4,943 nt of DNA from a virus. Taxonomy: Duplodnaviria; Heunggongvirae; Uroviricota; Caudoviricetes. The translations under genes and the position numbers were made by a program. Numbering within the stretch: the first letter of the stretch is position 1; every line of letters begins with the position of its first letter. Below the pieces are notes generated by a model that did no database searches, had not been told where the DNA came from, and saw only the letters and a program-made list of their open reading frames with translations. Below are positions 1 through 1,190 of this stretch, one piece after another. The stretch lies in IMG/VR virus record IMGVR_UViG_2531839449_000028, one strand, 5' to 3'.

Positions 1-2
1 GG

Positions 3-854
3 GTCGGACCGGTATGCAGCGAACTGCATATTGCCCCGTCAACGTATTACCATTGTCAGCAACAGCGACATCATCCGGATAAACGCAGTGCCCGTGCGCA
101 GCACGACGACTGGCTGAAGAGAGAGATACAGCGCGTATACGATGAAAATCATCAGGTGTACGGTGTGCGTAAAGTCTGGCGTCAGTTGTTACGGGAAGGA
201 ATCAGGGTGGCCAGATGTACAGTGGCACGTCTCATGGCGGTTATGGGACTTGCCGGTGTTCTCCGGGGTAAAAAGGTCCGTACGACCATCAGCCGGAAAG
301 CCGTTGCCGCAGGCGACCGCGTAAACCGTCAGTTCGTGGCAGAACGACCTGACCAGCTGTGGGTGGCTGATTTTACTTACGTCAGCACATGGCAGGGCTT
401 CGTCTATGTGGCGTTTATCATTGATGTGTTTGCCGGATACATCGTGGGGTGGCGGGTCTCATCGTCTATGGAAACGACATTCGTGCTGGATGCGCTGGAG
501 CAGGCGTTGTGGGCCCGTCGTCCGTCTGGCACCATCCATCACAGCGATAAAGGCTCTCAGTATGTGTCACTGGCCTATACGGAGCGACTAAAAGAAGCCG
601 GATTACTGGCATCAACAGGGAGTACAGGCGACTCGTATGACAACGCGATGGCTGAGAGCATCAATGGTCTTTACAAAGCGGAGGTAATACACCGTAAGAG
701 CTGGAAAAACCATGCAGAAGTGGAACTGGCCACACTAACGTGGGTGGACTGGTATAACAATCGACGATTGCTGGGAAGGCTGGGCCATACTCCTCCGGCA
801 GAAGCAGAAAAAGCTTATTATGCTTCCATCGGAAACGATGATCTGGCAGCCTGA
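3..854 (+). CDS. IS3-family transposase OrfB (DDE integrase core), 5'-partial at the window edge
   Basis: The frame is open from nt 3 to the TGA at 852-854; the ORF track's 156..854 is the internal Met-to-stop part. DDE catalytic residues are visible in the translation: WVADFTY (D codon about 370-372), HHSDKGSQY (D codon 547-549) and DNAMAESINGLYK (E codon 654-656, with the conserved K downstream). The OrfA part and the frameshift window would lie upstream, outside this window. Confidence 0.9.
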   Translation, partial: VGPVCSELHIAPSTYYHCQQQRHHPDKRSARAQHDDWLKREIQRVYDENHQVYGVRKVWRQLLREGIRVARCTVARLMAVMGLAGVLRGKKVRTTISRKAVAAGDRVNRQFVAERPDQLWVADFTYVSTWQGFVYVAFIIDVFAGYIVGWRVSSSMETTFVLDALEQALWARRPSGTIHHSDKGSQYVSLAYTERLKEAGLLASTGSTGDSYDNAMAESINGLYKAEVIHRKSWKNHAEVELATLTWVDWYNNRRLLGRLGHTPPAEAEKAYYASIGNDDLAA

Positions 855-871
855 GTTCACAGATAAAACAC

Positions 872-896
872 TCTCCAGGAAACCCGGGGCGGTTCA
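872..896. repeat. Putative right terminal inverted repeat (IRR) of the IS element
   Basis: The sequence ctctccaggaaacccggggcggttca ends in CA; its reverse complement begins TGAACCGCCCCGGG..., the expected form of an IS3-family end. The exact length and inner boundary cannot be fixed without the left end. Confidence 0.5.
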
Positions 897-1190
897 GGTA
901 TTGCACGTAAAAATGTTCTGATAGACGACGCTCAAAATGCTATTAAAGCAGCGTTGGAAGATAATTTTGGTCGTGATTCGTCATCATTCAGTTTATTACT
1001 ACAGAGTGATGATGATTCTCAGCAATGTTATGCACAGGTAAAAGTTAAAGATATTTGGCGAGTAATAGAGTCGCTGGATATGTTTCTCTCTTATGACATA
1101 ACAATACAAAATATGAAAGATGCAGTTTACTTTAATGACTTCATTTATCTTGACGTGAAATCTTCAACGTTCAGTATTTCTTACCCGTAA
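897..1190 (+). pseudogene. 5'-truncated remnant (C-terminal ~98-108 codons) of a phage structural gene, probably a baseplate protein, disrupted by the IS insertion
   Basis: Frame 3 is open from 867 (inside the IS end) to the TAA at 1188-1190, with no ATG and no Shine-Dalgarno sequence; the ORF track's start at 954 is a TTG with no RBS. The stop lies 10 nt before the next gene's ATG, as in a tightly packed operon. The baseplate assignment is inferred from gene order only. Confidence 0.5.

Follow-up and report, generated by a model that had tools for sequence, protein, structure and literature searches.

IS629 within the baseplate gene bplA of a D6-like phage-plasmid from Escherichia coli O111:NM OK1180

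IS629 and the 3' remnant of bplA

The window, that is, the whole 4,943-nucleotide stretch of DNA analyzed here, corresponds in full to contig ADUQ01000052.1 of assembly GCA_000188835.2 (E. coli O111:NM OK1180). It very likely records the insertion of a complete 1310-bp IS629 at codon 380 of bplA, a baseplate gene of a D6-like plasmid prophage, with duplication of the target GGT. The contig starts inside the element, and positions 1-896 (+ strand) comprise its 3' 896 bp (element positions 415-1310 of 1310). This segment was 99.6% identical (E = 0) to the IS629 annotated in Stx2 phage 1717 (positions 415-1311) and 99.2% identical to an IS3-family copy in pVP441. An open frame 3 and Pfam matches to HTH_21 (3e-18), rve (9e-28), and rve_3 (1e-11) identified the C-terminal 283 codons of transposase OrfB, including its DDE/rve domain, at 3-854 (+). 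The terminus at 896 reads ...CCCGGGGCGGTTCA, an end shared with the other IS629 copies compared (L001, L003, L006, and L009). The first-pass annotation, made from the letters alone, had called 1-896 an IS3-family, IS629-like element with its right end, GGTTCA, at 896. These comparisons bore it out and showed GGTTCA to be the canonical terminus.

IS629 belongs to the IS3 family, has the isoforms IS1203 and IS3411, and is abundant in Shiga-toxigenic E. coli. The OK1180 copy resembles it in having an OrfB with an rve domain, a length of 1310 bp, identical terminal repeats, a 3-bp target duplication, and an orfA/orfB overlap at an A-rich run, and differs from it by a few point changes only. One of these lies within OrfB at window 711-713, which reads CAT (His) here and CGT (Arg) in two other IS629 copies. 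The right terminal inverted repeat occupies 872-896 (+) and ends in GGTTCA; in the reconstructed element the two ends, left TGAACCGCCCCGG... and right ...CCGGGGCGGTTCA, agree at 22 of 25 positions. PGAP marked a 'programmed frameshift' and an AL1L pseudoknot on the near-identical copy in pVP441, and an Rfam scan of the window matched no family.

OrfB stops at TGA (852-854) and a second frame-3 stop, TAA, follows at 864-866, after which frame 3 is open again from 867 to the TAA at 1188-1190. Because these two stops stand between them, a fusion of the transposase with the bplA remnant is impossible. The remnant itself, codons 380-476 plus TAA, spans 897-1190 (+) and matches the 3' end of the intact gene at 100% identity. 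The intact allele of pWP8-S17-ESBL-05_2 runs without interruption for 1431 nt (476 codons). Its codon 380 starts, in frame, at position 897 of the window, and 897-1260 matches that plasmid at 100% identity. Since identity to intact plasmids begins at 895-897, the break coincides with the IS terminus and is not at an arbitrary position. Direct reading found no ATG, GTG, or TTG between 867 and 953, the first start-type codon being TTG at 954, and no Shine-Dalgarno sequence before that TTG, in agreement with the earlier description of a frame to 1190 that lacks both a start codon and a ribosome-binding site. Without a start or a ribosome-binding site, and with two stops after the transposase frame, the 3' fragment of bplA is a dead remnant.

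An alternative, raised already by the first-pass annotation, is that 954-1190 represents an entire small gene, adjacent to the IS end by chance, and that no gene was split. A gene caller and GenBank do give a 78-aa ORF from TTG 954 (EFZ65220.1, E. coli OK1180). However, positions 897-953, upstream of this TTG, are 100% identical to intact bplA, with the match beginning exactly at the IS terminus, and TTG 954 has no Shine-Dalgarno sequence. Near-full-length matches among the 107 homologue clusters measured ~470-480 aa, and the fragment aligned with no more than the final fifth of the family profile. No homologue was a small protein starting near that position, and the other short members of the EFZ65220.1 cluster are labelled partial, being contig-edge fragments. 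We therefore assign the small-gene alternative next to no probability. A split bplA remains our reading: relative to P1 bplA and D6_38, the window retains only codons 380-476, and the gene is divided into a 380-aa ORF, located elsewhere, and an untranslatable remnant. A BplA of full length (~470-480 aa) with its own start is absent from the window, and the 3' piece found there represents a pseudogene fragment rather than a working copy of the gene.

The identity of the split gene, suggested earlier to be a probable baseplate gene, became clear from homology and profile searches, which place it as the D6 homologue of P1 bplA, of the T4 gp6 type. D6_38, annotated as 'baseplate J wedge protein, similar to P1 bplA', has 99.6% amino acid identity to the intact allele, and P1 BplA has 42% amino acid identity to the D6-type protein (tblastn, E = 4e-99). 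A profile built from 27 family members hit 9ay5, a PDB chain that bears the name BplA, at E = 2e-219, and T4 gp6 at E values from 3e-8 to 1e-6 (5hx2 at 1e-6). The PHROG family phrog_1369 ('baseplate protein') matched BplA at 3e-196, with the 97-codon remnant covering only positions 383-479 of the 489 in that profile, while a Pfam match to Gp6-like_1st was sub-threshold (16 bits versus a cutoff of 27). Mass spectrometry has shown BplA to be part of the P1 virion, and the protein was assigned as a baseplate wedge component orthologous to T4 gp6 (PMC9024508). NCBI and UniRef records give the name 'bleomycin hydrolase' to many BplA homologues (P0067, P0076, P0080, P0082, P0087, and others), which looks like a propagated misannotation of the baseplate wedge protein.

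The reciprocal junction and the reconstructed element

The other half of the gene was located on a second contig of the same assembly, ADUQ01000055.1 (L009). There, bplA codons 1-380 continue the reading frame of the remnant up to the left end of IS629 at 6529, which is followed by orfA (108 aa, HTH_Tnp_1; L009 6583-6909), which overlaps the start of orfB at an A6 run. The last 183 bp of ADUQ01000055.1 are exactly the first 183 bp of the window, and joining the two contigs yields an IS629 of 1310 bp; the join runs through this 183-bp overlap within a multicopy repeat, so that linkage is inferred from the contiguous flanks and the target duplication rather than read across. The left flank ends ...AAATTTACAGGT|TGAACC..., the right flank begins GGTATTGCACGT..., and the intact sequence reads AAATTTACAGGTATTGCACGT with a single GGT, which makes 897-899 (+) the right copy of a 3-bp target-site duplication. 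Target duplications of the other IS629 copies compared were likewise 3 bp (AAG, GGT, and GGA). The first-pass annotation had anticipated an element of about 1.3 kb, a duplication of 3-4 bp, and a 5' half in the same frame, and each of these was recovered. With contiguous flanks and a duplicated target, hardly any explanation other than a simple insertion is left.

The protein record provided a further check. On the basis of a 3-bp duplication, a 380-aa BplA ending in ...FTIKFTG was predicted in advance, and this protein was found exactly as EFZ65113.1; the product of a 4-bp duplication, ending in ...KFTGMNRPGNPGD, was absent from the protein collection. EFZ65113.1 and EFZ65220.1, two 'hypothetical proteins' of OK1180, are accordingly the two halves of one baseplate gene split by an IS, and a single IS629 allows contigs ADUQ01000055 and ADUQ01000052 to be joined.

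The OK1180 assembly is a 2010-era draft, and the window is a 4.9-kb contig that begins within a multicopy IS, which raises the possibility that short-read assembly produced a chimeric junction at a repeat, bplA being intact on the plasmid in the cell. Such a reading would also fit our searches for the precise IS/bplA junction, which was found in none of 5,426 complete E. coli genomes, the plasmids of PLSDB, the GTDB representatives, or the JGI metagenome contigs. Against it, the break coincides with the final base of IS629, and the reciprocal junction is present on another contig with a 3-bp duplication like those of other copies, whereas a chimera would create no target duplication. The same left junction was, moreover, assembled independently from two further runs, SRR3360271 and SRR040455. 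An assembly chimera is thus very improbable in our view, and the insertion stands as the explanation of the junction. In all 10 of 10 other contexts sampled in which an identical gene-16 protein occurs, the upstream gene is a full 476-aa BplA; taken with the absence of the junction from the surveyed collections, this indicates that the event is rare and specific to one lineage.

A D6-like phage-plasmid with repeated hits in its tail module

From 895-897 onward, the window matched ~20 circular E. coli plasmids (~90-95 kb) at 96-99.9% DNA identity and phage D6 at 99.2%. Phage D6 is a relative of P1 and is maintained as a plasmid prophage. D6-like phage-plasmids are characterized by the conserved gene order pmgB-sit-pmgA-bplA-16-R-S-U and a Cin/cix invertible fibre segment, on plasmids of ~90 kb. 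The OK1180 DNA fits this type: over 895-4943 its identity to phage D6 and to the circular 90-95-kb plasmids is 98-99.9%, cixR is present, and the order pmgA-bplA-16-R-S is the one seen in P1 as well as D6. Judged from its sequence, the element is a P1/D6-like phage-plasmid, probably extrachromosomal, and not a lambdoid Stx prophage. The first-pass annotation had taken IS629 as a hint of a Shiga-toxigenic E. coli host, which was right, OK1180 being an Stx2-positive O111:NM strain (PMC3359367). The block sit-pmgA-bplA-16-R was also observed on contigs of 0.27-4.7 Mb (L015, L019, and L021, the last a 4.69-Mb contig of GCA_033843625.1), on one of which a PTS transporter gene follows the block in place of S. 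Such very long contigs suggest chromosomally integrated or truncated D6-like elements.

As the sequences show, the TGA with which the IS begins ends BplA at residue 380 of 476, next to the duplicated 3-bp target GGT. We propose the following consequences for the phage. In T4 gp6, the C-terminal part makes contacts between wedges. By analogy, a BplA without its C-terminal fifth is presumably non-functional and would be unable to build baseplate wedges, hence no tails would be made. We found no statement on the essentiality of bplA in the P1 study (PMC9024508).

A second insertion was identified in the same plasmid, where an IS91-family element (Y2 transposase) of 1827 bp interrupts the tape-measure gene sit (L009 1816-3642). 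It has no target duplication, and its flanks are contiguous in comparison locus L002 at 3119/3120. With this second insertion, what is left of the phage is probably a plasmid that is no longer infectious. The D6-like phage-plasmid of OK1180, an O111 outbreak-type strain, thus carries two IS hits in presumably essential tail genes. The earlier view that the prophage is likely tail-defective is upheld, since the truncation of BplA and the hit in sit both point to a phage-plasmid that is very probably tail-defective and probably no longer infectious. O111 STEC plasmids carry copies 99.9% identical to the IS91-family element in sit.

IS629-type elements were found to have entered the tail module of D6-like elements at least four separate times: twice at bplA (OK1180 and SRR26406882), once in gene 16, and once in S. 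In pVP441 (L001 8847-10156) the element lies in S with the duplication AAG, and in the O45:H2 FWSEC0003 plasmid (L003 6972-8279) it lies in gene 16 with the duplication GGT, the copy there being a 94%-identical relative. These two plasmids therefore share with OK1180 a tail module hit with 3-bp duplications, but the targets are S and gene 16 instead of bplA. Both had also surfaced as matches to the OK1180 junction itself (at 100% for pVP441 and 95% for the FWSEC0003 plasmid); these matches were composites and were rejected, as the IS sits in S and gene 16, respectively.

The second hit at bplA came from SRR26406882, a run unrelated to OK1180 (L008, Logan contig 71, 11141-11168). In this case IS629 follows ...TTTACAGGT at the same base of bplA but in the opposite orientation, with the flank joined to the right end of the element, and sit is intact. 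The opposite orientation and the intact sit indicate an independent insertion at the same GGT. It is a tentative idea, and one we hold at rather low confidence, that the GGT at bplA codon 380 is a preferred IS629 target, hit at least twice, and that the recurrence of IS in the tail module reflects a selected route from phage to plasmid. Several Stx phage records annotate IS629 within phage genes, for example in a terminase pseudogene, and the disruption of prophage genes by IS629 in Shiga-toxigenic E. coli is already known and commonplace, so that the OK1180 insertion is no departure from known biology. Its practical value is mostly one of annotation, with the same-site, opposite-orientation IS629 and a candidate D6 late-promoter motif as by-products.

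Downstream genes and a candidate late promoter of R-S-U

Downstream of the remnant, the window encodes an intact 281-aa homologue of P1 gene 16 at 1201-2046 (+), a baseplate or tail structural protein (PF26903, Phage_P1_Gp16; phrog_2015, 3e-131), the D6 counterpart of which, D6_37, is annotated as 'similar to P1 gene 16'. Its ribosome-binding site, GAGG, lies at 1192-1195, directly after the bplA stop, and the operon-style packing described for this boundary in the first pass was evident. An intact 148-aa homologue of P1 gene R follows at 2141-2587 (+) (PF26881, Phage_P1_tail_fiber_R; phrog_2032, 1.5e-74; D6_36, 'similar to P1 gene R'). The 5' part of the tail-fibre gene S, which has a Phage_fiber_2 repeat, begins at 2590 and runs off the contig end at 4943 (+).

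The first-pass annotation had held that the insertion cuts the intact fibre genes off from their native promoter. In its full form, this polar-effect model states that the IS severs R, S, and U from their sole promoter and that no fibre proteins are made. Several observations agree with it: the genes from pmgB to U are tightly packed on one strand, a sigma-70 and terminator scan of 800-2700 returned nothing useful on the + strand (and no sigma-70 consensus promoter there), and the P1 late-promoter box, AAGTNACTT-N4-TANNNT, gave only chance-level matches in D6-type DNA, none of them upstream of R. In P1, however, a late promoter, LPs (earlier Ps), is annotated between 16 and R and drives R-S-U, in addition to a late promoter LPsit annotated upstream of pmgC. 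P1-type Lpa-dependent late promoters combine a conserved box centred near -22 with a -10 hexamer, ahead of late operons; promoters of this kind have no -35 and are hence invisible to a sigma-70 scan.

Candidate counterparts of these P1 features occur in the window, in the 94 bp that separate 16 from R. Right after the gene-16 stop is a GC-rich hairpin with a 10-bp stem (2050-2075, +; -18.1 kcal/mol, z = -3.8), which is likely an operon boundary; P1 has a hairpin at the same place (tcaccccgtccgcagggcggggtga). The hairpin is followed at 2082-2102 (+), 39 nt before R, by a late-promoter-like motif consisting of the box AAATCACAAACT (2082-2093), three nucleotides, and the -10-like hexamer CATACT (2097-2102). 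Its general form, which emerged when the D6 sequences preceding pmgB and R were compared, is AAATCACANACT, 3 nt, and a -10-like hexamer NANNNT. The arrangement resembles that of P1 LPs in its position between 16 and R, in the succession of hairpin, box, short spacer, and -10-like hexamer, and in the lack of a -35, and differs in the box itself, which is AAGTNACTT in P1 and AAATCACANACT in D6-type DNA.

Across the 91-kb D6 genome (L012/L013), the motif occurred five times exactly and nine times with at most one mismatch, far above the simulated chance expectation of 0.07 exact matches and 2.0 with one mismatch. All nine copies are intergenic, and each lies just upstream of a late-type gene or block and is directed into it, the targets being peptidoglycan hydrolase, mat, gene 7, major capsid, pmgB, R, holin, ddrB, and portal. 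By analogy with P1, the motif may depend on the D6 Lpa homologue (D6_4). It is a candidate counterpart of the Lpa-dependent late promoter box of P1 and may be of use in phage-plasmid work.

With this evidence, loss of all fibre gene expression through polarity is unlikely, and the earlier idea of fibre genes severed from their native promoter finds no support. The motif at 2082-2102 and the hairpin at 2050-2075, arranged as in P1, suggest instead that R and S most probably retain a late promoter of their own, from which R-S-U would still be transcribed, and that gene 16 alone is orphaned. Only the gene-16 homologue (1201-2046) would, on our inference, lose transcription from the late promoter upstream of pmgB-sit-pmgA-bplA-16, and read-through from IS629 could still express it.

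The portion of S in the window was 99.9% identical to the 3000-nt tail-fibre gene of comparison locus L002. Within it, at 4016-4035, lies the Cin recombination site cixR, whose core, TCCAATACCTTGGTTTAAGA, recurs unchanged in the cixR of D6 and P1; the contig extends ~900 bp past this site into the invertible segment. The constant part of S also contains a 222-bp unit in 2.1 tandem copies (3259-3722), which resembles the b1/b2 repeats annotated in P1.
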